Part shown: one piece after another, positions 1,210-33,498 of the stretch | Position numbering within the stretch: the first letter of the stretch is position 1 | Layout: the number at the start of each line of letters is the position of its first letter | Source of the DNA: Bacteroidota bacterium | GTDB taxonomy: Bacteria > Bacteroidota > Bacteroidia > NS11-12g > UBA955 | Assembly (NCBI GenBank): GCA_030682255.1 | Contig: JAUXOK010000026.1 | Coordinates: 96,567-160,566, forward strand | Direction of reading: 5' to 3' | Length of the DNA stretch: 64,000 nucleotides | Position numbers and translations under genes: made by a program | The notes under the pieces: generated by a model | What the model was told of the DNA's origin: nothing | Databases searched by the model: none | The model's input: only the letters and a program-made list of their open reading frames with translations

Positions 1210-1626
1210 TTAAGTTGCTACTATATTTTCATTTTCGTTTTGAATTTTCATTAATCGCTCAAGTCTTTCTTTTTCAAATCTTTCCATTGTTTTTTTGAGT
1301 TCCTCAACTTGTGCTAAATCCAAACCTTCAATTCTTGCTGTCCAATTTTCATCCTTTGTTGGTTTGGATAATTTTGTAATACAATCGTGCCAAACTGGCA
1401 AAACAGTTTTTTTAGTGGTGTCCCACCAAAACAAATCATTTGGGGTGCAGTTTAGCTCTTTGCAAATTTTACTCAAATCTTCAAAAGCAATAGACTTTTG
1501 TTTGTGATGGATTAAATTGTAGCACTTGGCTTTGGTAATATTACAATGCTTTTGAAGCCAAGCTTGAGGGTTTTTCTTGCCTTGAGATAGCAACACTTCT
1601 TTGATTTTTAGTTTAAGCATATACAA
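1210..1626 (-). CDS. XRE-family helix-turn-helix transcriptional regulator
   Basis: 138 aa. N-terminal region QAWLQKHCNITKAKCYNLIHHKQKSIAFEDLSKICKELNCTPNDLF reads like a Cro/C1 HTH; acidic, coiled-coil-like C-terminus. Confidence 0.55.
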   Translation of the reverse strand: MYMLKLKIKEVLLSQGKKNPQAWLQKHCNITKAKCYNLIHHKQKSIAFEDLSKICKELNCTPNDLFWWDTTKKTVLPVWHDCITKLSKPTKDENWTARIEGLDLAQVEELKKTMERFEKERLERLMKIQNENENIVAT

Positions 1627-2400: not shown

Positions 2401-2535
2401 CAATTTATAAATGTTTTTTTGTGTGGCATATAAAACTAAGCTTATATGAATTACAAAAACATCAAAGAAGAGGAAGTGGAAAACAAAGAGGAGTCTGATT
2501 TTTTTAAGACTTCCGACACCCCCGAAACCACAGAC

Positions 2536-2850
2536 AAGGCTAACAGCCCAGCCCTGAAAGGGCGATATAACATAAGGCTGGGCATAGCTCCTCCGAAAGC
2601 CCTGAAAGGGCGACATAACCTAAGGATGGGCATAGCCCTTCCGAACCTAAGCATAGGCGCAGCCCTTCCGAACATAAGCCTAGGCATAACTCCTCCGAAA
2701 GCCCTGAAAGGGCGACATAACTTAAGGATAGGCGCAGCCCTTCCGAACTTAAGCATGGGCATAGCTCCTCCGAAAGCCCTGAAAGGGCGATATAACTTAA
2801 GGTTGGGCATAGCCCTTCCGAACCTAATTATGGGCATAGCCCTTCCGAAT
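2536..2850. repeat. REP/BIME-like cluster: 4 copies of the palindrome GCCCTGAAAGGGC alternating with GGGCATAGCCCTTCCGAA-type modules
   Basis: Palindromes at about 2551, 2599, 2701 and 2776, separated by recurring modules (CGAYATAACYTAAGGNTGGGCATAGCYCCTCCGAA). Lies immediately 5' of the RAYT gene. The two overlapping 137-aa ORFs here are repeat translations. Confidence 0.75.
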
Positions 2851-2862
2851 AAACTATAAAAC

Positions 2863-3315
2863 ATGGGTCAATCACTAGTTCAAAATTATATACATATCGT
2901 ATTCAGCACAAAGTACAGGCAGCCTCTCATACATCCACCTATAGAGCAAGAACTTCACGCTTATTTGGGCGGAATATGTAATCGTTTAGAATGTCAGTCT
3001 ATTATTGTAGGTGGCTATACAGACCATATTCACATCCTTTGCAAGCTCTCAAAAAAAATTGCTTTGATGAAATTGGTAGAAGAAGTAAAATCTCATTCAT
3101 CTAAATGGATAAAAACAAAAGGCGATGATTACCGCAATTTTTACTGGCAAGATGGTTATGGCGCTTTTTCGGTCAATCCTTCCGAAGTAGATGTCGTAAT
3201 TAATTACATAGCCAATCAACACCAACATCACAGCAAGAAAACCTTTAAAGGCGAATATATAGCATTTTTAGAAAAGTATCAGGTTGAATATGATGAACGC
3301 TATGTTTGGGACTGA
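2863..3315 (+). CDS. IS200/IS605-family Y1 (HUH) transposase of the REP-associated tyrosine transposase (RAYT / TnpA_REP) type
   Basis: 150 aa; HUH motif DHIHIL and a C-terminal tyrosine motif NYIANQ, the size expected for TnpA_REP. Flanked on both sides by REP-like palindromes. Confidence 0.8.
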   Translation: MGQSLVQNYIHIVFSTKYRQPLIHPPIEQELHAYLGGICNRLECQSIIVGGYTDHIHILCKLSKKIALMKLVEEVKSHSSKWIKTKGDDYRNFYWQDGYGAFSVNPSEVDVVINYIANQHQHHSKKTFKGEYIAFLEKYQVEYDERYVWD

Positions 3316-9787: not shown

Positions 9788-10360
9788 ATGTCAATAGATT
9801 TATTATTCCAAAACATTGAAAAACACATTGTATTAACTGACAAAGAAAAATCCATGTTGTCCGATTTCCTGGAAGAAAAAACTTTTAGAAAAAGACATTA
9901 TTTTGTTCAGGAAGGACAATATGCTAATTATTCAGCATTTGTAACAAAAGGGTGCATGCGATCTTATTATGTGGACACCAATGGATTCGAACACATTCTT
10001 CAGTTTGCTATAGAAGACTGGTGGATTGCTGATATGATGAGTTACACCACTGGTAAAGAAGCTAGGCTTAATATTGATGCGTTAGAAAATACCGAAGCGC
10101 TACTTATTTCAAGAGAAAATCAATTAAAATTATTTGAAGTTTGTCCAAAATTTGAGAAGTATTTTAGAATTATAACTGAAAATGGTATTGTAAGTATTCA
10201 AAACCGATTGTTAGAAAACATGAGTCTTTTGGCTCCTGAACGTTATGCCAATTTCGTTAAAAAATATCCAATATTAAATCAACGATTACCACAAACACAG
10301 ATTGCGGCTTTTTTAGGAATCACACCAGAGTTTTTGAGCAAAATCAGGAATAGGGGTTAG
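9788..10360 (+). CDS. Crp/Fnr-family transcriptional regulator (cNMP-binding domain plus C-terminal HTH)
   Basis: 190 aa; a cNMP-binding-like beta-roll region, then a C-terminal HTH around QTQIAAFLGITPEFLSKIR. Confidence 0.8.
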   Translation: MSIDLLFQNIEKHIVLTDKEKSMLSDFLEEKTFRKRHYFVQEGQYANYSAFVTKGCMRSYYVDTNGFEHILQFAIEDWWIADMMSYTTGKEARLNIDALENTEALLISRENQLKLFEVCPKFEKYFRIITENGIVSIQNRLLENMSLLAPERYANFVKKYPILNQRLPQTQIAAFLGITPEFLSKIRNRG

Positions 10361-10361
10361 G

Positions 10362-10490
10362 TTATGGTTAATGGTGTCCCGCATGAAAAATGCGGGAGGG
10401 TTAATAGTGTAAGGGTTAATGGTTTATTGGTTAATGTTGTCCCGCATGAAAACTGCGGGATAGTGATTAGGAAGTAGGGGGAAGAAAATT
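10362..10490. repeat. gene-less copy of the GGTTAATGG-rich repeat element, containing two copies of the hairpin GTCCCGCATGAAAAaTGCGGGA
   Basis: gggttaggttatGGTTAATGGtgtCCCGCATgaaaaATGCGGGagGGTTAATAGTGTAAGGGTTAATGGtttattGGTTAATGttgtCCCGCATgaaaacTGCGGGatagtgattaggAAGTAGGGGGAAG. It abuts the Crp gene stop codon. Confidence 0.55.
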
Positions 10491-12528: not shown

Positions 12529-13530
12529 TCAATTAAACTTTTTACTTTTCAATACTTTGCCATTTTTATCTTTAATCAACCAAACACCAATTGGTTCACA
12601 ATAGATAGAATTACCACATGTAAAATGAATCACATCATTTTCATTGCTTGAGTGTTTATGAACTATTGGTTTAAAACAAGCAATCATGACATCTTGGGTT
12701 TGAGGATTGTAATAATTCCATGTATCTTTTGCTAAATAATTGTTATACTCAATTAGCCTTAATAAACTCCCAAAATCGAAACTATCTTTTTGTAAATTAA
12801 TTTCAATAAAAGTCTTTATGAAATAAGGACTAATAAAAGTCTTTAAAAAGTCAAATTCCATTCGACTTGAAAAGCCTTCAATAATCAAAAGGCCAGAACT
12901 ATCAAAAGTTTTTAATCGAAAGGTGCTATCATTAATTTTTTGACAAGTAAATTCAATTGATGGTATTTTTGTTTGATAATATTTCGTGTAAGAATAATAA
13001 CTGCTTTCAAAATAGCCTTTTTTCTCCGACAACAAAAAAGTATCACTATTGACTATTTGATACAATAAAACATTGTTGTTTTTATTAAGTCTCTCAAAAT
13101 TTTCAGATGTTACTGGAATTATTTCAAATTGACTGTTTTGATTTTTAACTTTTAAGACAAAGTCATTTTGATCATTTAATGTTGTAAATCTCATAGGTTC
13201 GGCATAGCGATATTCCCCTAATATTTCATACTTTATACTATCTATTAACAGTTCGGAATATCCATTGGTTCTGGCTAAAACTGAAGTAAATTTTTTCGTT
13301 CTACTTCCCAAAATTTTTTGGGCTAAAATATCCTTTATTTGAGAGTCTTTAACTACCGTTCGGGCATCGTCTATCTTGGCAAGCCAATTGGATGCAAATG
13401 TTGCATCTAGGGTACTATCGTAGGCGGTAAAAGCAGCCAATTCGTCAACAAAAATTGCGTGAAGGGTGTCGGATGTTTCGCACATATAGTCATCGCTGCT
13501 ATTATATGCTCTGATAATTTCTTTTGCCAT
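12529..13530 (-). CDS. hypothetical protein (333 aa, no recognisable domain, no signal peptide)
   Basis: Long clean ORF with an ATG start; the 21-bp repeat array lies upstream of it. Confidence 0.55.
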   Translation of the reverse strand: MAKEIIRAYNSSDDYMCETSDTLHAIFVDELAAFTAYDSTLDATFASNWLAKIDDARTVVKDSQIKDILAQKILGSRTKKFTSVLARTNGYSELLIDSIKYEILGEYRYAEPMRFTTLNDQNDFVLKVKNQNSQFEIIPVTSENFERLNKNNNVLLYQIVNSDTFLLSEKKGYFESSYYSYTKYYQTKIPSIEFTCQKINDSTFRLKTFDSSGLLIIEGFSSRMEFDFLKTFISPYFIKTFIEINLQKDSFDFGSLLRLIEYNNYLAKDTWNYYNPQTQDVMIACFKPIVHKHSSNENDVIHFTCGNSIYCEPIGVWLIKDKNGKVLKSKKFN

Positions 13531-13755: not shown

Positions 13756-13944
13756 GTTTAGTTGATGTCCGTCACCGTTTTGTTAATGAACATCAACGTT
13801 TAGTTGATACCCATCACCATTTAGTTAATGCTCATCACCGTTTAGTTGATGCTCATCACCGTTTAGTTGATGCTCATCACTGTTTAGTTGATACTCATCA
13901 CCATTTAGTTGATACCCGTCACCGTTTAGTTGATGCTCGTCACC
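13756..13944. repeat. tandem array, 9 copies of a 21-bp unit GTTTAGTTGATGCTCATCACC, each containing the inverted repeat GTTGATG-N2-CATCAC(C)
   Basis: Units in exact 21-bp phase from 13756 to 13944, with point variants such as GATACCCATCACC and GATGTCCGTCACC. Sits in the 686-bp interval between two minus-strand genes, about 225 bp upstream of the start of the 12529..13530 gene. Confidence 0.85.
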
Positions 13945-14216: not shown

Positions 14217-16748
14217 TTATCTTAAAAGACTTATTGTGCCATTTTTAAAGTGTTTTTTTTCTTGTAAATCAACAATTGTTAATGAATACATATATACGCC
14301 CTCTTGACAAATTTGATTTTTAAAATTGCCATCCCAAAAAGGTTGTACATTGGTTATTTCAAAAATAAGTTCACCCCAACGATTGAATATTGACATTTTA
14401 ATGGACTTAGCATTACTGATAGTAGGCTGAAATACATCATTTATTCCATCATTATTAGGGCTAAATGAGTTAGGAATATACTCTACCAATTTTAAACAAG
14501 GAGTAAATTCTATTGTATCTGAATTAAAGCAATTATTTTTTTGGATTCTAACAAAATAAACACCAGGTTCAGTCACAATTATGCTGTTTTGGGTACTTCC
14601 ATTACTCCATAAATAACTTTGTGCGAACGGTGCTCTAAGCATTTGATGATTACAAAGAAAAGTATCTTTACCTATAAATATGTCAGGCTTTGGTAATTTA
14701 TTTACACTTATTGTGTCTGAGTTATAACAAAATGGATATTGAGCTTTAACCCAATAAGAACCTTTTGAATAAACATTGGTTATGGCGCCTGTATCATCAT
14801 TACTCCAAAGGTAATGTATTCCAGTAATTGGAGTTATTTTAAGTTGCACTTTATCACAAATAGTGGTATCGGGTATAATTTCAATTTTTGGAGGGGGTAT
14901 TTGATTTAGATTAATTGTATCTGATGCTTCACAATGGTTGCTTCCAGTTACCTTTACATGATACAATCCTTCTTTATCTACCATAATTGAATAGGTAGAT
15001 TCTTCTGTATTCCATTTGTAATTTTTAAACCCGATTCCAGCATCTAGTTTTTTAGTAAAAGCATTGCAGAACGTTTCGTCATCTCCAATAAACACATTTG
15101 GCACATTACCTAAACTTATTTTTATGGTGTCTGCCAAGTTGCAAAATTTGTGTTTATAGGTTAGAATATACTCACCCGGAATATCTGTATATAGCTGCTG
15201 TGTGGTATCAATTGTGTTCCAATAAAATTGAATATTTAAATTGTTGTTTTGGTCTTTAATTAAAACTTTAGTATTAGGGCATATTATTGTATCATTGCCT
15301 AAATTTGGCTTTTGTTTACTAACAATATTAATTGATGAATAAATAATTGTGTCTTTGCCATCTGGCAATGAAACAATGGCTGAAACATTAAATATACGAT
15401 AATAGGCATACAGATGTTTTACATATGGTTCAGTTGTTTGCTTGGTGTTTCCATCTCCAAAATGCCAGACTATTTTTGTAACATCTGTGTTTACAATCTT
15501 AATTAATGCAGAATCCGACAAACAAGTGGTATCAGTTACTATTTTAATGGGATAATAAATTTGAGATTGTACACAATTGGGCAAACCAACTTTTGTTTTT
15601 GTTGAATTAGTGTATGTTTTTAATGCTCTATATTCAAAATCTGTTTTTAAACCATTGCTATCAGGATTATTTATAACGCTCAAAGCTGAGTCAACAAAAC
15701 CCATTGTTGCGTATATTTTTCTATTAGGTGCCAATTGTAAACTATAAAATTGATTATAATTATTAGAATTAATTTTCAAACGGATTTTATTAACATCAAT
15801 GTTATTTTTTATTGAATCTATGGGTATTTGATAAATGCCTTTATCTGAATTTAAGTCACATGTAAAATATAAAAATTTTTCATTTGGAGAAAATTCACAA
15901 CCATAAGCAAATTCTCTTGATTTAAGACCAAGAACAATTCTTCTATAATTGCTAAACGTACCATTGGAATGGTTAAAATCTAAAAAATGTATATAACTAT
16001 AGTCAGTGTCATTCTCATGAGATCTATATTCTGTAAATGCCAAATATTTGCCATTAGATGAAAATTTCATTTGCCCAATTCCATAACTAACATGACGACC
16101 CCAATCTGTGCCATCACCATATCCAATTTTATTAGTATTCATTTTATGAATAATTGGACTAGAGATACCATTTTCTGTAAGCTTATATAAATAAATAGAA
16201 TCAGAAAAATATTTTATGGAGGCAATCCAAACATCTTGTCCATTTTGGTGATTAACAGCTGTTAGTTTTTCACTAGAGTTTTTAAAAAGAAATGTGTTCT
16301 TTTCTATTACTTTTCCTAGTCCACTGTTTAAGTTTATATCAACGATGGAATAAAATACACCATTATTTGAAATTAAAGGATTAAGATTTACATGATCTGA
16401 AGTAAATAAGTAATAAAGATTAGAGTTTCCAGGTTGTTTTACAATCAATGCAGATTGCGTACTTGATACTCCTCCTAATAATCCAAAACCATTTTCCAAC
16501 GTATCGTGATTTTTATTCCAAATAGTAATACCGTCTGTATAAAACAATAAATTTCCATTATTATCTGAAATTGATGAACTACCTTCAAAAGCGTTCATTT
16601 TTGATTTATTATGAATAGTGTCAGATAAATGATTGAAATCTATAGAAGCATTCTGACCAAAACACCAATTGTTATAATATTTTTGAGTATAAATATTATT
16701 TGCAAATATTAATAAGAACAAAGACAATATAATGTATTTTGTTTTCAT
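14217..16748 (-). CDS. large secreted protein with a T9SS type-B sorting domain (gliding motility-associated C-terminal domain, CHU_C)
   Basis: Signal peptide MKTKYIILSLFLLIFANNIYTQ; C-terminus YIPNSFSPNNDGINDVFQP...WDGNFKNQ...GVYMYSL matches the type-B CTD. Confidence 0.7.
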   Translation of the reverse strand: MKTKYIILSLFLLIFANNIYTQKYYNNWCFGQNASIDFNHLSDTIHNKSKMNAFEGSSSISDNNGNLLFYTDGITIWNKNHDTLENGFGLLGGVSSTQSALIVKQPGNSNLYYLFTSDHVNLNPLISNNGVFYSIVDINLNSGLGKVIEKNTFLFKNSSEKLTAVNHQNGQDVWIASIKYFSDSIYLYKLTENGISSPIIHKMNTNKIGYGDGTDWGRHVSYGIGQMKFSSNGKYLAFTEYRSHENDTDYSYIHFLDFNHSNGTFSNYRRIVLGLKSREFAYGCEFSPNEKFLYFTCDLNSDKGIYQIPIDSIKNNIDVNKIRLKINSNNYNQFYSLQLAPNRKIYATMGFVDSALSVINNPDSNGLKTDFEYRALKTYTNSTKTKVGLPNCVQSQIYYPIKIVTDTTCLSDSALIKIVNTDVTKIVWHFGDGNTKQTTEPYVKHLYAYYRIFNVSAIVSLPDGKDTIIYSSINIVSKQKPNLGNDTIICPNTKVLIKDQNNNLNIQFYWNTIDTTQQLYTDIPGEYILTYKHKFCNLADTIKISLGNVPNVFIGDDETFCNAFTKKLDAGIGFKNYKWNTEESTYSIMVDKEGLYHVKVTGSNHCEASDTINLNQIPPPKIEIIPDTTICDKVQLKITPITGIHYLWSNDDTGAITNVYSKGSYWVKAQYPFCYNSDTISVNKLPKPDIFIGKDTFLCNHQMLRAPFAQSYLWSNGSTQNSIIVTEPGVYFVRIQKNNCFNSDTIEFTPCLKLVEYIPNSFSPNNDGINDVFQPTISNAKSIKMSIFNRWGELIFEITNVQPFWDGNFKNQICQEGVYMYSLTIVDLQEKKHFKNGTISLLR

Positions 16749-17585: not shown

Positions 17586-17903
17586 TTATAAATTTAATTT
17601 TTTCAACAATTGCACCATCTCAATCATTAGTTTTGGAGCATTAAGAGAGCAAAAATTTATTGTATTACATTGTGTGCAATTATTTAAAACTTGTTTCCAT
17701 TCAAATGTCAATAAATAATAAGGTGTAACACCTAATTCTTTAGAAATATCATATAAACAACTTAAAGATATATCAATTTCTCCTTTTTCTATCTTCTGAA
17801 GCCAATTTTGACTCTTACCTAGCTTATTAGCTAATCCGTCTTGAGAAAAACCTTTAATGGTTCTTAAAATTCTTACATTTTCTCCTAGTTTAGTATTTAT
17901 CAT
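17586..17903 (-). CDS. XRE-family helix-turn-helix transcriptional regulator
   Basis: 105 aa; HTH region VRILRTIKGFSQDGLANKLGKSQNWLQKIEKGEIDISLSCLYDISKELGV. Lies directly upstream of, and co-oriented with, the Cys-rich protein gene. Confidence 0.6.
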   Translation of the reverse strand: MINTKLGENVRILRTIKGFSQDGLANKLGKSQNWLQKIEKGEIDISLSCLYDISKELGVTPYYLLTFEWKQVLNNCTQCNTINFCSLNAPKLMIEMVQLLKKLNL

Positions 17904-17944
17904 ATTTTAATTTTGTACAATAATATGAAAAAATGTTTAAAAAG

Positions 17945-17978
17945 CAAAAAACAAGTAAATTCCTTTACTTGTTTTTAA
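17945..17978 (-). terminator. rho-independent (bidirectional) terminator downstream of sdhB
   Basis: aaaaaACAAGTAAAttcctTTTACTTGTttttt. Confidence 0.65.
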
Positions 17979-18035
17979 AAATCAAAAATCTTTCCAATAG
18001 CCACAGCTATCGAAACTAAAATCAAAAAACACATT

Positions 18036-18782
18036 CTATTCGCTTACCAAACTCGCAGACAGATATTCTCTGTTTAATCTAGCAATATTGCTTAAGCTGA
18101 TTTCTTTAGGACACTCTGCACTGCAAGCACCTGTATTGGTACATGCGCCAAAACCTTCTGCATCCATTTGATTCACCATGGCAATGGCACGTTTTTTAGC
18201 TTCTGGTTGCCCTTGTGGCAATAATGATAACTGTGATACTTTAGCTGACACAAACAACATGGCACTGGCGTTTTTACAAGCTGCTACACAGGCACCACAA
18301 CCAATACAAGCTGCACTCATAAAGGCTTCGTCTGCGATGTCTTTACCAATTGGCAAAGCATTCGCATCTTGGGCATTACCAGTATTCACACTCACAAATC
18401 CACCCGCTGACATAATTCTATCAAAAGAACTTCTATCAACTGATAAATCTTTCAAAACAGGAAATGCGGCTGCTCTCCATGGTTCTACAACAATGATATC
18501 GCCATCTTTAAAAGAACGCATGTGCAATTGGCAAGTGGTTACTGCATCTTTTGGTCCATGTGGTCGCCCATTGATGTACATACTGCACATACCACAAATG
18601 CCTTCACGACAGTCGTGGTCGAAAACAACAGGTTCTTTACCTTCGTTGATCAATTGCTCATTCAACACATCAAACATTTCTAAGAATGACATGTCTTCAG
18701 ACACATGGTCTAATTTGTAGGTCTCAAACTGACCTTTACTTTTTGTATTTTTTTGTCTCCAAACTTTTAATGTTATTTTCAT
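18036..18782 (-). CDS. sdhB: succinate dehydrogenase / fumarate reductase iron-sulfur subunit
   Basis: 2Fe-2S and 4Fe-4S cysteine clusters ([11 protein letters not shown]; [11 protein letters not shown]; [12 protein letters not shown]). Confidence 0.95.
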
Positions 18783-18857
18783 TTGGTTAAGGGTTAATGG
18801 TTAATAGTTAAGGGTTATTGGTTAAGGGTTATTAGTTAAGAGTTGGGGTTGTTAACG
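18783..18857. repeat. left GGTTAAGGG/GGTTAATGG repeat flank of the four-helix-bundle element; abuts the sdhB start codon
   Basis: ttGGTTAAGGGTTAATGGTTAATAGTTAAGGGTTATTGGTTAAGGGTTATTAGTTAAGagttgggg; overlaps the last 8 codons of the four-helix-bundle gene. Confidence 0.6.
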
Positions 18858-19269
18858 TCTTGATATTATACTCGGGTTCTGGTTCTGATGCGTAATTTGA
18901 GTTAACTTTTGAGGTTAGATAATTGATGTAACCATTCATTAATTTAAGGCAAGTTTCTATTTTTGATTCTATTATGGTTAGTTTTATTGTATCAATGTAT
19001 TGATTTTCTAATGCTATCTGAAGATGGTCTAGTAATTCATATAAGGAACCTCTTGACACTCTGCAAAACTGTATATTTTCTTTGAAATGAAATCTACCAT
19101 ATCCTTCAGCAATATTATTTGTAATGGAACGGGAACATCTGATCATTTGGTCAATTAATCGGTATTGTTCTGAAACAGGAAAAGCTTTTACTAAATCAGC
19201 AACGTCAAGTCTTAGCTCTTTACAAAACTTGAAACATTCTAAATCTTCAAAACTTCTTATTTTACTCAT
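18832..19269 (-). CDS. four-helix-bundle protein (TIGR02436 / 23S rRNA intervening-sequence protein family)
   Basis: 145 aa, all-helical composition with ...SITNNIAEGYGRF...FCRVSRGSLYELLDHLQIA..., characteristic of this family. Inserted between sdhA and sdhB on the same strand. Confidence 0.7.
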   Translation of the reverse strand: MSKIRSFEDLECFKFCKELRLDVADLVKAFPVSEQYRLIDQMIRCSRSITNNIAEGYGRFHFKENIQFCRVSRGSLYELLDHLQIALENQYIDTIKLTIIESKIETCLKLMNGYINYLTSKVNSNYASEPEPEYNIKTLTTPTLN

Positions 19270-19362
19270 TCCCTAATTCTTATTAAACTAATAAACACCA
19301 TTAACTAAAACTATAAACGATTACACAATTAACCATTACACTATTAACCATTACACCATTCC
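19270..19362. repeat. right repeat flank of the four-helix-bundle element (CCATTAACC / CCATTACAC units, ending in CCATTCCCTACTT overlapping the sdhA stop codon)
   Basis: Reverse complement reads AAGTAGGGAATGGTGTAATGGTTAATAGTGTAATGGTTAATTGTGTAATCG..., the same motifs as the copies at 2311 and 10362. Confidence 0.6.
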
Positions 19363-21369
19363 CTACTTATAGCTTCTCGCTGCAATTTTAATATTCTCGT
19401 ATTTTAATTCTTCTTTGTGTAATTGCCATTGGGCATCTTGTGTCATTTCCCAAGCGGATACAAAACTAAAGTTCTCATCGTCTCTGAGGGCTTCGCCTTC
19501 TTCTGTTTGGTATTCTTCTCTGAAGTGGCCACCACAACTTTCATTTCTTTCTAAAGCATCTTTACACATCAATTCACCTAGTTCAAGGAAATCGGCCACT
19601 CTGCCAGCTTTCTCTAATTCATTGTTAAATTCATTAACTTCACCAGGCACACGAACGTTGGTCCAAAATTCGTTTCTCAATGCTTGAATTTCTGCAATGG
19701 CTTTTTTCAAACCAGCTTCGTTTCTTGCCATGCCACATTCATCCCACATGATTTTGCCCAATATTTTATGAAAATAATCTACAGATTTTGTGCCTTTGAT
19801 ATTAATTAATTTGTTCAATCTATCTGAAACTTCTTTTTCTGCTTGCACAAACGCTTCATGGTCGGTAGGAATCGCTTTGGTACGAATATCAGTGCTTAAG
19901 TATGCACCAATGGTGTAAGGAATCACAAAATAGCCATCCGCCAAACCTTGCATTAAGGCAGATGCACCCAATCTGTTGGCACCGTGGTCGCTGAAATTAG
20001 CTTCACCCAAGGCGTACAATCCTGGCACAGTGGTCATTAAGTTGTAATCTACCCATAAACCACCCATGGTGTAATGCACCGCAGGATATATTTGCATTGG
20101 TTCATTGTAAGGATTTACACCTGTAATTTGCTCGTACATATCAAACAAGTTGCCATATTTTTCTTTCACCACCGCTTTTCCAAGTTTGGTTAAAGTAGCT
20201 TTATCAGGATTGACAAGGTTTTGTTTAGTTGCTTCAATTTTTCCATATCTTTCGATAGCGGCAGCATAATCTAAATAGACGGCTTGACCAGTTTTATTTA
20301 CACCATAACCAGCATCACATCTTTCTTTAGCAGCTCTACTTGCTACGTCACGAGGCACTAAGTTTCCGAATGCAGGGTATCTTCTTTCTAAATAATAATC
20401 TCTGTTTTCTTCAGCAATATCGTTAGGTTTAAGTTTTCCTTCTCTAACAGCTTTTGCATCTTCAGCATTTTTAGGCACCCATATTCTGCCGTCATTTCTT
20501 AGAGACTCAGACATCAAAGTTAATTTTGATTGGTGGTCGCCAGAAACAGGAATACAAGTTGGGTGAATTTGTGTATAACAAGGATTACCAAAGAACGCCC
20601 CTTTTTTATGAGCTTTCCAAGCAGCTGTTACATTACTTCCCATGGCATTGGTTGACAAGAAAAACACGTTTCCATATCCTCCTGTGCATAATAAAACAGC
20701 ATGACCAAAATGTCTTTCTAATTCTCCTGTGATTAAATTACGGGCAATGATTCCTCTTGCTTTGCCATCAATGGTAACAACATCCATCATTTCATGACGG
20801 GCATATAAAGTTACATTTCCCATACCAACTTGTCTTTGTAAGGCACTGTATGCACCCAACAACAATTGTTGACCAGTTTGACCTGCTGCATAAAAAGTAC
20901 GTTGAACTTGAGTACCACCGAACGAACGGTTACTCAACAACCCACCGTATTCTCTTGCAAACGGAACCCCTTGAGCCACACATTGGTCGATAATACTAGA
21001 ACTAACTTCCGCCAAACGGTGAACATTGCCTTCTCTTGCTCTATAATCACCACCTTTGATAGTATCATAAAACAAACGGTAAGTGCTATCGCCATCGTTT
21101 TGATAATTTTTTGCAGCATTGATACCACCTTGAGCAGCAATTGAGTGCGCTCTTCTAGGAGAATCTTGAAAGCAAAAGGCTTTCACTTTATATCCCATTT
21201 CGGCCAAAGAAGCAGCCGCAGAAGCACCAGCCAAGCCAGTTCCAACTACGATAATTTCTAAACTTCTTTTATTAGCAGGGTTAACGAGAGGAACAGAAGA
21301 TTTGTATTTGGTCCATTTTTGATCTATTGGACCTTCAGGAATTTTTGAATCTAATTTATTTATTGACAT
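19363..21369 (-). CDS. sdhA: succinate dehydrogenase / fumarate reductase flavoprotein subunit
   Basis: FAD-binding [10 protein letters not shown] motif at the N-terminus; 668 aa, the long Bacteroidetes/frdA-like form. Confidence 0.95.
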
Positions 21370-21384
21370 TTTTTTAGATTGATT

Positions 21385-22161
21385 TTAATGGTTGAAAAAT
21401 AAAAAGAAAATTGGCATGGTAGCAAAAAGCAATGGAATAATGATTCCAAAAACACCGATACCAATGTTCTTAATCAATTGATTATATTTTTTATGGTTTA
21501 GCCCTAAAGTTTGAAAAGCACTTGAAAAACCATGAATTAAATGAAATGACAAAGCTAACATCGCAAGCACATAGATTAAAACTACCCACCATTGTTGAAA
21601 AGCATCTGCTACCACATGGTATAAATCTTTAACAATGGTTACTTCGATGCCATTTTCCGTGTATTGTTCCATTTTGTTCACAATAGAACCATCGAAAGAG
21701 AAATAACTCAAATCATTGTCATTTAAATTTTTTTGATACATGGTATAAGGCACTTCTCCAAATTTGTATCTGGCCCAAAAACCAGCCATGTGTAAAATTA
21801 AAAACACTAAAATAATGGTTCCTAATAAGCCCATATTTCTGCTAGCCCAAGTACTATTGGCTTTGCCATCAACTTGAGCATAAGCCACTGGACGTGCTTT
21901 TTTATTCTCAAAAACCAAATAAAGCCCCCAAATGGCATGAAAAACAAATGTTGCATATAAGCCATAAGAAGTGAATTTAATTAGAGGGTTAGTTGTCATA
22001 AAAACAGCATAAGTGTTAAAAGACAATCCTCCATCATTGTTGAACAATTGAAAATTTCCAATCAGATGCACGACTAGAAATGAGCACAAAAACAATCCTG
22101 TAAGAGCCATCAGGAGCTTTCGGCCTATACTTGATTTTAAAAAGCGGGTTAACCAATTCAT
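21385..22161 (-). CDS. sdhC: succinate dehydrogenase / fumarate reductase cytochrome b subunit (Bacteroidetes type, single membrane anchor)
   Basis: Multi-TM protein with conserved His residues, first gene of the sdh operon. Track ORF starts at TTG 22194; the ATG at 22161 (MNWLTRFLKSSIGRKL) is preferred. Confidence 0.85.
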   Translation of the reverse strand: MNWLTRFLKSSIGRKLLMALTGLFLCSFLVVHLIGNFQLFNNDGGLSFNTYAVFMTTNPLIKFTSYGLYATFVFHAIWGLYLVFENKKARPVAYAQVDGKANSTWASRNMGLLGTIILVFLILHMAGFWARYKFGEVPYTMYQKNLNDNDLSYFSFDGSIVNKMEQYTENGIEVTIVKDLYHVVADAFQQWWVVLIYVLAMLALSFHLIHGFSSAFQTLGLNHKKYNQLIKNIGIGVFGIIIPLLFATMPIFFLFFNH

Positions 22162-22319
22162 ATAATTATTTGAAGTTATTTTTTGATGGCGCAAATTTAT
22201 TCATTTATCTTTTATAAACATTCTAAATAAGCGTATTTTTATTTATTTATATATTAACAAAGGTATTTTTACTTGGTTTTGCAAACATCAACAAAAAACA
22301 ATTAATCACGTATAACTCT

Positions 22320-23501
22320 GTGAAAATTAGTTCAAAAATAAAAAATAATTGTTATATATTCGCAGTCCTTTTGACCAAAAAAACTAAAATTTGTCATCTC
22401 AGTTCCGTACACTATGCCATTGACACACGCATATTTTATAAAATGTGCCAAACTTTGTCGAAAGCATATGACGTAACATTAATTGCCAATCACTCCCAAA
22501 AAGAAATCATAGATGGGATACAAATTATACCATCAAAAGTGTTTTCAAATAGGAAGTACAGAGTGTTTTTTTCTTGGTATTGGATGTTTTTTAAAGCCAT
22601 TAAAGTGAATGCCAAACTCTATCATTTTCACGATCCTGAATTAATTCCCTGCGGTTTATTACTCAAAATTCTAGGCAAAAAAGTGATTTACGATATCCAC
22701 GAAAACATTGCAGAAGATATTTTTGATAAACCTTGGATTAAAAACCCAAAATTGGCTTACCGTATTTTCAATGCATTTGAAAAATTAGCAGTAAAACACT
22801 TTTTCATCATTTTAGCTGAAAACAGTTATCAAAACCGTTACATCCAATTAAATGCTAACTATCAAGTGGTATTAAATTATTGCGATGTTGATTTTTTCAA
22901 AAATTATACTAGTACTCCATCAAAAGAAACTATTAATTTATTCTACATCGGCATATTGCTGGAAAACAGAGGGATTTTACAAATCATTGAAGCAATGATT
23001 CTCTTAATTAATAAAGGGATAAAAATCAAATTTCACATTGTAGGAGAATTATATTCGGATTTAAGAAAAAAAATTTCAGGCTTAGAAGATTATCAGCACA
23101 TTAAAGAACATTTAGTTTTTTATGACAGAAGACCACTAGACCAAGGATATGAATTGGCGTCAAAAATGAATATTGGCATGTGTATTATTTGGCCCATGAA
23201 AAATTCAATGGAAAGCTATCCTACAAAATTATTTGAATATATGGCTGTTGGATTACCTATAATAACCTCCAATTTCCCCTTGTATAAAAAAGTAGTTGAA
23301 CAAAACGGATGTGGAATTTGTGTGAACCCAATGTCTGCAATTGAAATATCAGAAGCCATTGAAGAGCTAATCAATAATGTCTCAAAAAGTGAACAAATGG
23401 CAAAAAATGGTAAAAAAACAGTTTTAGAACAATATAATTGGGAAACTCAAAAACCCATACTGACAAAGGTTTACGCTCAATTATTAAAAAAAGAAAAATA
23501 A
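22320..23501 (+). CDS. glycosyltransferase family 4 (GT-B fold)
   Basis: KICHLSSVH...FHDPELIP and a C-terminal region typical of GT4. Start uncertain: GTG 22320 or TTG 22371. Confidence 0.7.
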   Translation: MKISSKIKNNCYIFAVLLTKKTKICHLSSVHYAIDTRIFYKMCQTLSKAYDVTLIANHSQKEIIDGIQIIPSKVFSNRKYRVFFSWYWMFFKAIKVNAKLYHFHDPELIPCGLLLKILGKKVIYDIHENIAEDIFDKPWIKNPKLAYRIFNAFEKLAVKHFFIILAENSYQNRYIQLNANYQVVLNYCDVDFFKNYTSTPSKETINLFYIGILLENRGILQIIEAMILLINKGIKIKFHIVGELYSDLRKKISGLEDYQHIKEHLVFYDRRPLDQGYELASKMNIGMCIIWPMKNSMESYPTKLFEYMAVGLPIITSNFPLYKKVVEQNGCGICVNPMSAIEISEAIEELINNVSKSEQMAKNGKKTVLEQYNWETQKPILTKVYAQLLKKEK

Positions 23502-27983: not shown

Positions 27984-30900
27984 ATGAAAATAATTCTACT
28001 ATATAGCACTTTAATTATTTGTTTGTTTACAAATGCACAAAGCACTCATGTGAATGGCCCTATTGGAAGTGGAGAATTCGGAAGATCCATTACAATTTTA
28101 AGCAACGGTAATTACGTTGTTACTGATCCACTTTTTGACGATGGAACTAAAGCTGATGTAGGAGCTGCTTATCTATATAATGGGTCAACACATGCGTTGA
28201 TAAGTACACTAAAAGGTAGCACAGCAAATGATCAAGTTGGTAGTCATGGTATAATTGTCCTTTCAAATGGCAATTATTTGATTCATAGTTTCAATTGGAA
28301 CAATGGGACTGCATTTTATGCAGGTGCCGTCACTTGGGGCAGTGCAACCACGGGCGTGAGCGGTGTGGTTGGCCCTAGCAACTCTTTGGTGGGTAGCAAG
28401 GCTAATGACAGAATTGGGAATAGCGGCATTTTAGTTCTCTCTAATGGCAATTATTTGGTTTTAAGTACTGTTTGGGATAATGGGGCTGCTATAGATGCAG
28501 GAGCTGTTACTTGGGGCAGTGATGTTTTGGGCGTAACCGGAGTAGTTAGTGAGAGTAATTCCTTGGTGGGTAGCACGTCAAGTGATCAAGTGGGAAGTGG
28601 AGGAGCAACTTTACTATCCAATGGCAATTATATAGTGAATAGTCCAACTTGGGACAATGGTTCTATATCGAATGCTGGTGCCGTTACGTGGGGAAGTGGT
28701 AACTCAGGCATCAGTGGCGCAGTTAGTGCTAGCAATTCTTTGGTGGGCAGCACAGCAGATAACATTGTTGGAAACGGTGGAATAACGATCCTTACTAACA
28801 GTAATTATGTAGTTCGCAGCTCAAGATGGGATAATGGAACTGCAAATGACGTAGGAGCCGTCACTTGGGGCAACGGCACTTCAGGTATCATCGGTGCGGT
28901 TAGTGCAAGTAATTCTCTGGTTGGTAGTACCGTTAATGACCAAGTGGGAAGTGGTTTTATAATCGCTCTTTCCAACGGCAATTATGTAGTAAATAGCCCC
29001 TTTTGGGACAATGGGGCAATAAGCAATGTCGGAGCCGTCACTTGGGGCAATGGAACTACCGGCATTAGTGGTTTAGTTAGTGCTAGCAACTCTCTAGTGG
29101 GAAGTTTGGCAAATGATCAAGTTGGAATTGTGATTTCAACGGCACTCTCCAATGGTAATTATGTGGTTCGCAGCTACAACTGGGATAATGGGGCCGCAAG
29201 CAATGCAGGAGCAGTTACATGGGGCAATGGCACTTCGGGTATTACAGGTGCTGTTAGTGCAAGTAATTCATTAGTGGGAAGCACGGCTAACGATCAAGTG
29301 GGCATAAATGGTATAACTGCCCTTTCAAATGGCAATTATGTAGTTATTAGCCGACAATGGGACAACGGTGCTGCAACAGACGCAGGCGCTGTCACATGGG
29401 GCAATGGCACTTCAGGCATAAGCGGTGTAATTAGCTCAAGCAATTCTTTGGTGGGTAGCTCGGCTAGTGACCAAGTTGGCATTAATGGTGTAGCGGTTCT
29501 CTCCAATAGTAATTATGTAGTTATCAGCCCCAATTGGAACAATGGAGCTGCAACGAACGCAGGTGCCGTCACGTGGGGCAATGGCACTTCAGGTATCAGC
29601 GGTGTGGTTAGTACTAGCAATTCACTAGTAGGTAGCACAACAAATAACCTAGTTGGCAGTAATGGGATAACCGCTCTATCTAATGGCAATTATTTAGTTA
29701 TGAGCCCTTCTTGGGACTATGGAACTTCAACTGACTTAGGAGCTGTTACATGGAGTAATGGCACCACGGGTATCAGCGGTGTAGTTAGTGCCAGCAATTC
29801 TTTGGTGGGTAGCTCTGCTCTTGATCAAGTGGGTGTTAATGGTATTTCATTGCTTTCCAATGGCAATTATGTGGTTCGCAGTAACAATTGGGACAATGGG
29901 GCTGTAACAAATGCAGGAGCCGTCACTTGGGGTAATAGCAATTCGGGAATTAGCGGTGCTGTTAGCGCTAGCAATTCTTTGGTGGGCAGTAAGGTTGGTG
30001 ACCAAGTTGGCAGTTCAGGTATAACAGTCCTCTCCAATGGCAACTATGTGGTAAATAGCTCAAATTGGGACAATGGGACCGCAATTCAGGCAGGAGCTGT
30101 GACATGGGGAAATGGCAACACAGGCATCAGCGGTGTGGTTAGTGTCAGCAACTCATTGGTAGGGGGAACCGCTAATAACTTCGTAGGAAATGGCAGTGTA
30201 ATTGCCCTTGCAAATGGCAATTACGTAGTTCGAAGTTTCAATTGGGACAATGGGGCTGTATCAGACGTAGGTGCTATCACTTGGGGCAGTGGTACTAAGG
30301 GTATTAGTGGGGTAGTTAGTGAGAGCAATTCTCTTATTGGAAGCACCGCTAACAATTTAGTGGGAAGCGCTAGCTTTAACATCTTCCCTAATGGTTATTT
30401 TGTGGTTCGCAATCCCAACTGGGACAATGGTACTGCAACGGACGCAGGAGCATTCAGTTTGGGCAATGAAAGCAAAGCATTGACAGGAGTCGTAAATTCC
30501 TGCAACAGTGTATTAGGAAATGCAGCTAATGGCGGCAGCAAAATGATTTCTGCTTTCAATACTGTTCATTCTTATCTTTTGGTAGGCAGACCTGGCGATA
30601 ATATCTTAACCATTTTCAATCCTATTGGTCAGCCTCTTGCTGTGCATTTGGATAGCACTTCAGCAAATATTGAAGGAAACACTGCTGTGCCCCTAGTAAA
30701 CAATGCTTGTCGTATTATTGCTTCCATACAAGCCAATGGGGTCAATCCTGTAATGGATTTGGTGCCGGCAAAAGTTTGGATAGAAACTAATCAAACAGAT
30801 AGTTTTGTTAAACGTCATTTTGAAATCACGCCTATAGTAAACAATAATAATGCAACAGCAAAAGTGATCTTATATTTCACCCAATCAGAATTTGATGATT

Positions 30901-32882: not shown

Positions 32883-33498
32883 ACTAGTTTGTTTAACAAG
32901 ATCATTTTTTTAATCATATCTAAAATTGGTGTTTATTTATTATATTACTAAAAGTCAACACGAATAATATAGTAAAGTCAAACAAATCGTAAATTTGAAC
33001 TAATGTTCACAACAATTATGACCTTGAATTAGTCAGAAAGTTATAAAATTCTCCCCCCTTATAAATCCTATCATTTTTTTGTTAGTATTGCATCTGTATG
33101 AAAAGATATCAAACTATTTTAATTTGTGTATTTAGCTTGGTGTTATAGAGCAAAACTAATTCGCCCCTTTACAGTATCGATAAGTTCAGTAAAAGTTGTA
33201 GCGAATCCTTATTCAATTAAGGATAGGCTAAGGAAGACAATGAACTTAGTGAAGCGGTGTCACGATTGAAAGGAGTAAAAGGCGCCAAAATGGTTTTTAA
33301 ACATTTTAGATACTATTAAGATACATTGGAGGATTGAAAACTATTTGGTATATTTAGTTCACCTTAAAATATTTGTATTTGAAATAGGAATGGTGAATTT
33401 GTGAGGAAAAACATAATTAAATAATTGAATCGAATTTTCCTGCAGTTTGCAAAATGCCCATAAATCTATATCTTTGAAATAAGTTTTAAATATTTGTC

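Follow-up and report, generated by a model that had tools for sequence, protein, structure and literature searches.

A candidate hairpin cassette carrying a four-helix-bundle gene between sdhA and sdhB of a Bacteroidota bacterium

In a 64,000-nucleotide stretch of a Bacteroidota genome (contig JAUXOK010000026.1; hereafter the window), the succinate dehydrogenase genes sdhA and sdhB are separated by a 580-bp spacer that holds a gene for a four-helix-bundle protein of the PF05635/TIGR02436 family, placed between two inverted arrays of short tandem repeats. We read this spacer, with a probability of roughly 60%, as a hairpin cassette of the type known from intervening sequences (IVSs) of 23S rRNA, that is, as a PF05635/TIGR02436 gene enclosed by inverted, TTAA-centred arrays with units of ~7 nt. 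The cassette appears to belong to a large Bacteroidota class that is found in many operons and, as far as we can tell, has not been named. Members of this class share one layout, in which a G+T-rich upstream arm starts from the stop codon of the host gene and an A+C-rich, G-poor downstream arm runs to the next start codon.

Results

The insert and its repeat arms

The insert lies on the minus strand and extends from the sdhA stop codon to the sdhB ATG, exactly 18783–19362. It is preceded by sdhA (flavoprotein subunit; 19363–21369, minus strand; NF005749, 1180 bits) and followed by sdhB (iron-sulfur subunit; 18036–18782, minus strand; NF005746, 435 bits). The open reading frame (ORF) of the four-helix-bundle protein, a member of the S23p/Avd family of 145 aa identified by PF05635 and TIGR02436, occupies 18832–19269 on the same strand.

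In the sense of the mRNA, the upstream arm (19270–19362, minus strand) consists of degenerate G+T-rich 15-nt units, GTGTAATGGTTAAT(A/T), after which comes a leader rich in A/T that terminates in the ATG of the four-helix-bundle gene. Tandem Repeats Finder described this arm as three copies of period 15 with 90% match at 19316–19360. The sdhA stop codon, TAG at 19365–19363 on the minus strand, supplies the first bases of the arm and is contained in the last degenerate unit of this right-hand block. The downstream arm (18783–18844, minus strand) is A+C-rich, entirely free of G and built from 7/14-nt units (TAACCCTTAACCAA), for which the same program gave periods of 7, 14 and 21 at 18785–18844; the unit length therefore differs between the arms, with 15 nt upstream of the gene and 7/14 nt downstream. 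The downstream array covers the final 13 nt of the four-helix-bundle ORF, stop codon included, and reaches the sdhB ATG with 0 nt in between, so that it constitutes the entire sdhB leader. As TTAA forms the core of the repeat units, each arm contains stops in all three frames of both strands, and the stops of the host gene and of the cassette gene therefore fall within the arrays.

The two arms are mutually inverted, with a perfect 14-nt inverted match (18795–18808 / 19340–19353) plus extended matches. Counting the motif GGTTAAKGGTTA with at most one mismatch yielded nine occurrences in the window compared to 0.82 expected, a number reached by none of 100 shuffles. The predicted arm–arm duplex amounts to −31.5 kcal/mol, against −19.7 ± 3.2 kcal/mol for shuffles (z = −3.7), and in the minimum free energy (MFE) fold of the whole insert the arms form the closing stem. 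By inverted match, duplex z-score and MFE fold, the insert thus has the feature typical of an IVS, namely terminal inverted sequences that can form a stem enclosing an ORF. An earlier note on this DNA, made from the letters, had described a 580-bp insert with a same-strand TIGR02436-type gene of 145 aa and inverted mini-repeat blocks, the right one over the sdhA stop and the left one abutting the sdhB ATG as its entire leader. The coordinates, the profile scores given below (92 bits for TIGR02436 and 96 bits for PF05635), the repeat-finder output together with the inverted match and motif counts, and a direct reading of the sequence bear out this description in full.

The four-helix-bundle protein

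The protein matches PF05635 with 96.3 bits (cutoff 33.8; E = 1.6e-27) and TIGR02436 with 92.1 bits (cutoff 24; E = 2.4e-26). Its AlphaFold model, built as a monomer, with a predicted local distance difference test (pLDDT) value of 87.8, comprises helices at residues 11–27, 32–57, 62–88 and 94–124 and a predicted disordered carboxy-terminal tail (125–145). Together with Foldseek, the model predicts the up-down four-helix bundle characteristic of the PF05635/TIGR02436 family. The Foldseek matches were led by 2gsc (XCC0516, pentameric) with a root-mean-square deviation (rmsd) of 0.9 Å and 2rld (BT_0352) with an rmsd of 2.0 Å, followed by Avd, the accessory protein of diversity-generating retroelements (DGRs; 4dwl, 8ub7). 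A ratio of non-synonymous to synonymous substitution rates (dN/dS) of 0.14 relative to the closest orthologues indicates purifying selection on the gene. The family is large, as 8148 clusters at 50% identity match the window protein. No second four-helix-bundle gene was found in the window, where tblastn gave one weak match (33182–33478, E = 0.04).

In DGRs, the RNA target of Avd is a stem-loop, and the template is bracketed by a long-range RNA duplex (preprint 10.1101/2023.10.23.563531). The window protein resembles Avd as a homologous four-helix bundle, with a Foldseek TM score of 0.88 by target length and a PHROGs match to 'Avd protein of DGR' (PHROG 3206, E = 6.5e-5), whereas sequence identity is ~6–10%. 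The annotated neighbours are sdhC, sdhA and sdhB, a helix-turn-helix (HTH) protein, a type IX secretion system (T9SS) protein, a glycosyltransferase and one protein without a Pfam match. In contrast to a DGR, there is no reverse transcriptase among them, and an assignment as the Avd component of a DGR was rejected on this ground.

Related cassettes across Bacteroidota

A metagenome scan with a family alignment provided 80 diverse loci encoding proteins 45–60% identical to the window protein. On inspection by eye, most of these loci have tandem 7–8-nt repeats on both sides of the gene, with upstream units such as GTTAATG, GTTATCC, GTTGAGT or GTTATAC and their complements downstream. Spacers adjoining the gene were tandem-periodic in 61% of cases, compared to 11% of the remaining 40–300-nt spacers of these loci (odds ratio 12, Fisher p = 2e-8), and an ungapped inverted match between the arms with a score of at least 10 was present in 64 of 79 loci. 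Flanking by like repeats, which the earlier note had put forward as a check on its proposal, is accordingly a property of such genes elsewhere.

The arms have a fixed polarity. Co-directionality with the gene was seen for the upstream neighbour in 51 of 53 loci and for both neighbours in 29 of 37. In 47 loci the upstream arm is rich in G+T, compared to 4 in which it is rich in A+C; C accounts for 11% of the 60 nt upstream of the gene, and G for 12% of the 60 nt downstream. Conservation is stronger for polarity and periodicity than for exact complementarity.

Host junctions recur among the loci, including sdhA|sdhB and spacers with a nuoG-like or glmM-like downstream gene. In the protein tree the sequences cluster by insertion junction, and among the loci compared no identical protein occurred in two contexts, identical proteins being confined to the same junction. 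Judged from these comparisons, the cassettes would be long-term residents and not recently hopping copies.

In Terrimonas rubra (L174, 2455–4855; JBHUOZ010000003.1) a single deoC-aldH-aldH operon houses two cassettes with proteins of 32% identity. The two have different arm units (GTTATTG/GTTAAC vs GTTTAAA) and each arm is complementary to its own partner, hence the arms belong to the cassette and not to the host genome. For the 16 loci with GTTGAGT-type arms, the distance between proteins was significantly smaller, 0.324 as compared to 0.407 ± 0.021 for random sets of 16 (0/5000 permutations), so that in this set the arm unit type follows the protein clade. Average-linkage clustering of arm units and a permutation of same- vs different-type pairs against protein distance were uninformative or negative.

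Separately, one cassette in L098 (126–1437) and two in tandem in L132 (1326–2517) lie between ORF fragments resembling the halves of one gene, the amino-terminal fragment starting MPRxARLDxPGLLQHVMARGIE and the carboxy-terminal one TGYAVTFNKRHKRSGHLFQNRYKS. An identification of these fragments as a Y1 transposase was rejected, as they have neither a Pfam match nor similarity to the Y1_Tnp protein of the window.

Age of the insert at the sdhA–sdhB junction

Homologues at the same junction were found in L001–L003, L164, L165–L172, L173 and L177–L179. Their protein identity to the window is 85–89% in L001–L003 and 72%, 65%, 62% and 58% in the others, the 58% homologue being that of the cultured flavobacterium Zunongwangia pacifica. 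The identity of the four-helix-bundle protein drops in parallel with that of sdhA and sdhB, and the synonymous divergence (dS) of its gene, 0.55–0.64, compares with 0.59–0.74 for sdhA. In the closest species representative, L004 (sdhB 93% and sdhA 90.5% identical), the gene is absent and the spacer measures 12 nt. The closest MAG originates from Lake Mendota. As the SdhA proteins of the window, the empty L004 and the occupied L165 are mutually ~90% identical, the insertion would be older than the split of these three, and L004 has most simply lost the cassette. No target-site duplication emerged from comparison with the empty site in L004. Since protein identity tracks that of sdhA and sdhB, dS matches that of sdhA and the insertion predates this split, the cassette appears to have descended with the operon, as an old, vertically inherited resident of sdhA|sdhB in the window lineage that was cleanly lost in some relatives.

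Array length varies between close relatives: L171 is one 14-nt unit shorter than L165 although the proteins are identical, and the window has additional upstream-arm units relative to L001. In L002 and L003, which are independent Logan assemblies, the contig ends at 6476, within the downstream arm. These breaks suggest that both genomes contain further copies of the arrays, which disrupt short-read assemblies.

A survey of 79 Bacteroidota sdhA–sdhB junctions gave spacers of at most 184 nt in 70. A PF05635 gene was present in six, representing at least three divergent types, one of them frameshifted, and unrelated genes were present in three. At least 16 junctions contain a gene-less hairpin, mostly of inverted short tandem repeats, with z-scores from −2.9 to −10. 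The junction is hence found empty, with a solo hairpin, or with a hairpin plus gene. A frameshifted pseudogene of an L048-type four-helix-bundle gene at sdhA|sdhB of a Flavipsychrobacter metagenome-assembled genome (MAG; L083, 1003–1472) still has CAATTGNC-type inverted arrays on its flanks.

Other genes seen in this spacer encode a protein of ~294 aa that weakly matches Glyco_tranf_2_4 (L024, 1977–2882; L066, 2592–3500) and a 226-aa protein with a signal-peptide-like amino terminus and no Pfam match (L026, 2790–3500). They adjoin the sdhA stop by 1 nt, and their hosts are Chitinophagaceae and a Flavipsychrobacter MAG.

The earlier note had proposed a compact, possibly mobile cassette settled inside the operon. 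A discrete cassette is supported by the short spacers of most junctions and the empty site of L004, and the distribution is indeed patchy, with the insert in L001–L003, L165 and others; recent settling, in contrast, is contradicted by the same-junction homologues and the dS values.

Transcription of the locus

The first gene of the operon is sdhC (cytochrome b558 subunit; 21385–22194, minus strand; TIGR02046, 164 bits; from the ORF list). Bacteroidota promoters follow the consensus TAnnTTTG with an upstream TTTG, and this consensus was used for a motif scan of 17900–22600. The only TAnnTTTG with a properly spaced TTTG was TACCTTTG at 22265–22258 on the minus strand, ahead of sdhC with TTTG 16 nt upstream, which we regard as the −7 motif of a candidate operon promoter; no such motif was found within the 580-bp insert. 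A scan for sigma-70 promoters returned chance counts and is uninformative for Bacteroidota. The coding strand of the insert has no terminator-like hairpin, and the sole one downstream of sdhA on the minus strand follows sdhB (17992–18015). With neither a terminator nor a Bacteroidota-type promoter motif inside the insert, co-transcription of the cassette with the sdh genes is plausible from the sequence. Rfam searches of the window and 20 related loci returned tRNAs alone, without any known RNA family or rRNA context, and PADLOC gave no defence-system match.

Gene-less arrays and other repeats in the window

Matches to GTGTAATGGTTAATA, the upstream arm's 15-nt unit, occur with 2–3 mismatches at 2338, 10407 and 10422, and matches in the window total 12 against 4.8 expected, a count that no shuffle reached. 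They mark two gene-less, G+T-rich arrays on the plus strand with the same unit family as the upstream arm, one at 10355–10470, beginning at the stop of a cyclic nucleotide monophosphate (cNMP)-binding gene (9788–10360), the other at 2311–2400. The gene-less relatives that the earlier note had placed at 10362–10490 and 2311–2400 are therefore real, with the refinement that both blocks are direct G+T-rich arrays alone and not inverted pairs. A small G+C-rich hairpin (CCCGCATGAAAAATGCGGG; CCCGCATGAAAA(A/C)TGCGGG) is present twice, at 10377–10397 and 10440–10460, interleaved with the gene-less GGTTAATGG arrays just past the stop of the cNMP-binding gene.

The array at 2311–2400 lies upstream of a Y1 (IS200-like) transposase gene (2863–3315, plus strand; PF01797, E = 1.3e-27), which is directly preceded by a ~300-bp array of 27/48/75-nt repeats with GCCCTGAAAGGGC hairpins (2550–3315 together with the gene). 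The pair looks like a RAYT (transposase associated with repetitive extragenic palindromic, REP, elements) gene with its REP array, and the ORFs overlapping this array, 2446–2859 (plus) and 2451–2864 (minus), are probably spurious. Nothing in the window was found to connect the Y1 gene with the cassette arrays. REP elements and bacterial interspersed mosaic elements (BIMEs) with their Y1 proteins resemble the cassettes as short, repeated intergenic hairpins within operons and in their scattered gene-less copies, a Y1 gene with a REP-like array being present in the window as well. They differ in that the cassette arms are tandem heptamers and not single imperfect palindromes, and in that the cargo gene is not a transposase.

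Three further tandem repeats were observed. Twelve copies of an A/T-rich 21-nt unit, ATTACGATTTATAAAACTTTA, with higher-order periods of 42, 63 and 105, lie at 1657–1912 next to a Cro/C1-type HTH gene (1210–1626, minus strand) and are iteron- or operator-like in appearance. Nine tandem 21-nt units, GTTTAGTTGATGCTCATCACC, each with a small imperfect palindrome (TGATG..CATCA), fill 13756–13944 in the spacer between an ORF (12529–13530, minus strand) and the T9SS protein gene (14217–16748, minus strand). A repeat of period 177/354 nt at 28801–30160 (~7.6 or 3.8 copies, 70–73% match) is presumably a repeat-domain coding region.

Discussion

The closest described counterpart of the insert is the 23S rRNA IVS. 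In Coxiella burnetii it is described as a selfish element whose S23p ORF occupies the loop of a stem that RNase III cleaves, and two to three tandem heptamers, in strain-dependent number, lie just upstream of the ATG; older proposals regarded the ORF as a mobility factor (PMC4990558). The insert shares with the IVSs of Coxiella and Leptospira (PMC4990558) a PF05635 ORF in the loop between inverted terminal sequences, variable-number tandem heptamers directly upstream of the ATG, a position inside a strongly expressed host transcript in the same orientation, sporadic occurrence among relatives, and degenerate copies. It differs in its host site, an intercistronic operon spacer instead of a 23S rRNA helix (neither the window nor 20 related loci contain rRNA), in its arms, which are long tandem arrays of fixed GT/AC polarity, and in its ORF, which is under purifying selection whereas that of Coxiella is regarded as decaying and untranslated.

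We propose that read-through from the sdhC promoter would transcribe the cassette. The arms would insulate translation, because they contain stops in every frame, and would supply an unstructured, G-free leader to sdhB. They may pair in the transcript and thereby fold the cassette out of the sdhCAB mRNA. RNase III cutting is known for the Coxiella IVS, and a folded cassette might likewise be a substrate of this enzyme, as in the 23S rRNA IVSs with the same ORF family, so that the operon would tolerate the insert. The protein may act as an oligomeric nucleic-acid-binding factor comparable to Avd, possibly on its own arms. Mobility would be ancient or rare, with no evident mechanism, given the homologues at the same junction, the matching dS, the clustering of proteins by site and the lack of any identical protein in two contexts.

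Several observations weigh against this interpretation, most of them concerning the stem. The fold of the whole insert is no more stable than those of shuffles (z = −0.85). Across the cassettes the arm duplex has a median of −32 kcal/mol, but pairing beyond that of shuffles with matched composition (z ≤ −2) is limited to 41 of 81 loci, and the orthologues at the sdh junction in L001, L164, L173, L177 and L009 do not pair above shuffles. Mismatches within the arms, examined as a test for selection at the RNA level, showed no excess of G·U over A·C (45 vs 63). An RNA stem is therefore not clearly the selected property, and a simple hairpin leaves the fixed polarity unexplained. In addition, the protein is near-neutral with a pI of 6.1, unlike the basic Avd, and the Coxiella authors doubt that S23p is made at all, which contrasts with the purifying selection on the window gene.

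Intergenic TAACTGA heptamer arrays were described by MacGregor in 2015 from Beggiatoaceae, Cyanobacteria and five Bacteroidetes. Most of them terminate at a start codon, they contain stops in all frames and have no known binding protein, and the four-helix-bundle family is not mentioned (PMC4679880). The downstream arm has every feature of such an array, being made of intergenic tandem heptamers with the A/C-rich strand running to a start codon and all-frame stops, except that its unit is TAACCNN and not TAACTGA, the latter occurring in the arms of some other cassettes. Conversely, the TAACTGA arrays (PMC4679880) are direct and have no associated gene, whereas the cassettes are inverted pairs of varying units around a PF05635 gene. 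From this likeness follows the main alternative, which we judge rather unlikely yet worth serious weight, namely that the heptamer arrays are primarily sites of post-transcriptional or translational control, with the protein as their cognate multivalent binder and the module as a regulator of sdhB translation or stability, not merely a tolerated insert. In its favour are the 'forward' orientation of the MacGregor arrays, ending a few nucleotides from start codons (PMC4679880), the A+C-rich arm ending at the sdhB ATG, the recurrence of TAACTGA/TAACCAA units, the gene-less arrays at other spacers and a polarity more conserved than pairing. Crystal structures of the family (2gsc, 2rld) are homo-pentamers, the family fold being a pentameric toroid, and RNA stem-loops are bound by Avd; moreover, the arm type tracks the protein clade and differs between the two cassettes of one genome. 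On the other hand, binding by the protein is putative and the protein is not basic, the covariation of arm and protein fits descent of the whole cassette equally well, and the closest relative, L004, does without the module.

It is improbable that the insert is a transposable DNA element or a non-autonomous derivative, with the arms as terminal inverted repeats mobilised in trans, for instance by the Y1 transposase at 2863–3315. The inverted arms without an RNA-specific wobble signature, the patchy distribution over many host junctions, the gene-less arm pairs reminiscent of miniature inverted-repeat transposable elements (MITEs), the contig breaks within an arm in L002 and L003, as expected of a multi-copy repeat, and the Y1_Tnp gene just downstream of one gene-less array would all be compatible with such an element. 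Yet a classification as DNA transposon or MITE by defined terminal repeats and target-site duplication was rejected, because the arms are variable tandem arrays whose ends are not fixed and whose copy number varies between near-identical loci, and no duplication was seen. Furthermore, proteins cluster by site with none identical in two contexts, dS equals that of the flanking genes, and the co-orientation with the upstream neighbour in 51/53 loci points to a constraint at the level of expression. The Y1 gene owns a different, REP-like array, and the Y1 link in L098/L132 is unsupported. A transposon-like origin in the distant past is possible, whereas recent DNA transposition is not supported. 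Even less probable, in our estimate, is a gene dedicated to succinate dehydrogenase in an accessory or regulatory role, whose PF05635 membership is incidental, with repeats that are ordinary intercistronic sequence: its putative co-transcription, its purifying selection and its maintenance at sdhA|sdhB in several classes of Bacteroidota would fit, but the same family with arms occupies unrelated operons (nuoG-like, deoC/aldehyde dehydrogenase, glmM-like and many others), most Bacteroidota and the closest relative lack the gene, three divergent PF05635 types are found at one junction, and the association with repeats is highly non-random. Chance low-complexity sequence with a spurious ORF, for which the A+T richness of the region alone speaks, has practically no probability left, being refuted by motif counts far above shuffles, strong hidden Markov model (HMM) scores, a dN/dS of 0.14 and a confident predicted fold.

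The IVS-type hairpin cassette thus accounts best for the 580-bp spacer. It is real and, in its operon setting, appears undescribed: in agreement with the earlier note, which knew of no such element, the literature searched, which covered subscription journals thinly, yielded no account of PF05635 cassettes within operons of protein-coding genes. A wider reading is conceivable, which we hold only tentatively and would rank as doubtful. It takes PF05635 proteins and polarised heptamer arrays as one self-contained 'hairpin-loop cassette' that recognises its own arms and colonises the spacers of housekeeping operons throughout Bacteroidota, and probably in Cyanobacteria and Beggiatoaceae. The 23S IVSs and TAACTGA repeats would then be special cases or remnants, and the cassette might cut or remodel polycistronic mRNAs or spread by a hairpin-targeted or RNA-mediated route.

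For practical work, the arrays break assemblies, and annotation pipelines call the gene merely 'four helix bundle protein'. The function of S23p, the abundance of stand-alone Avd-like genes and the role of intergenic heptamer arrays have been three separate puzzles. The window locus and its relatives present all three as parts of one recurring unit in essential operons (sdh, nuoG-like and others), and with Zunongwangia pacifica and Terrimonas rubra as cultured carriers these puzzles become testable.

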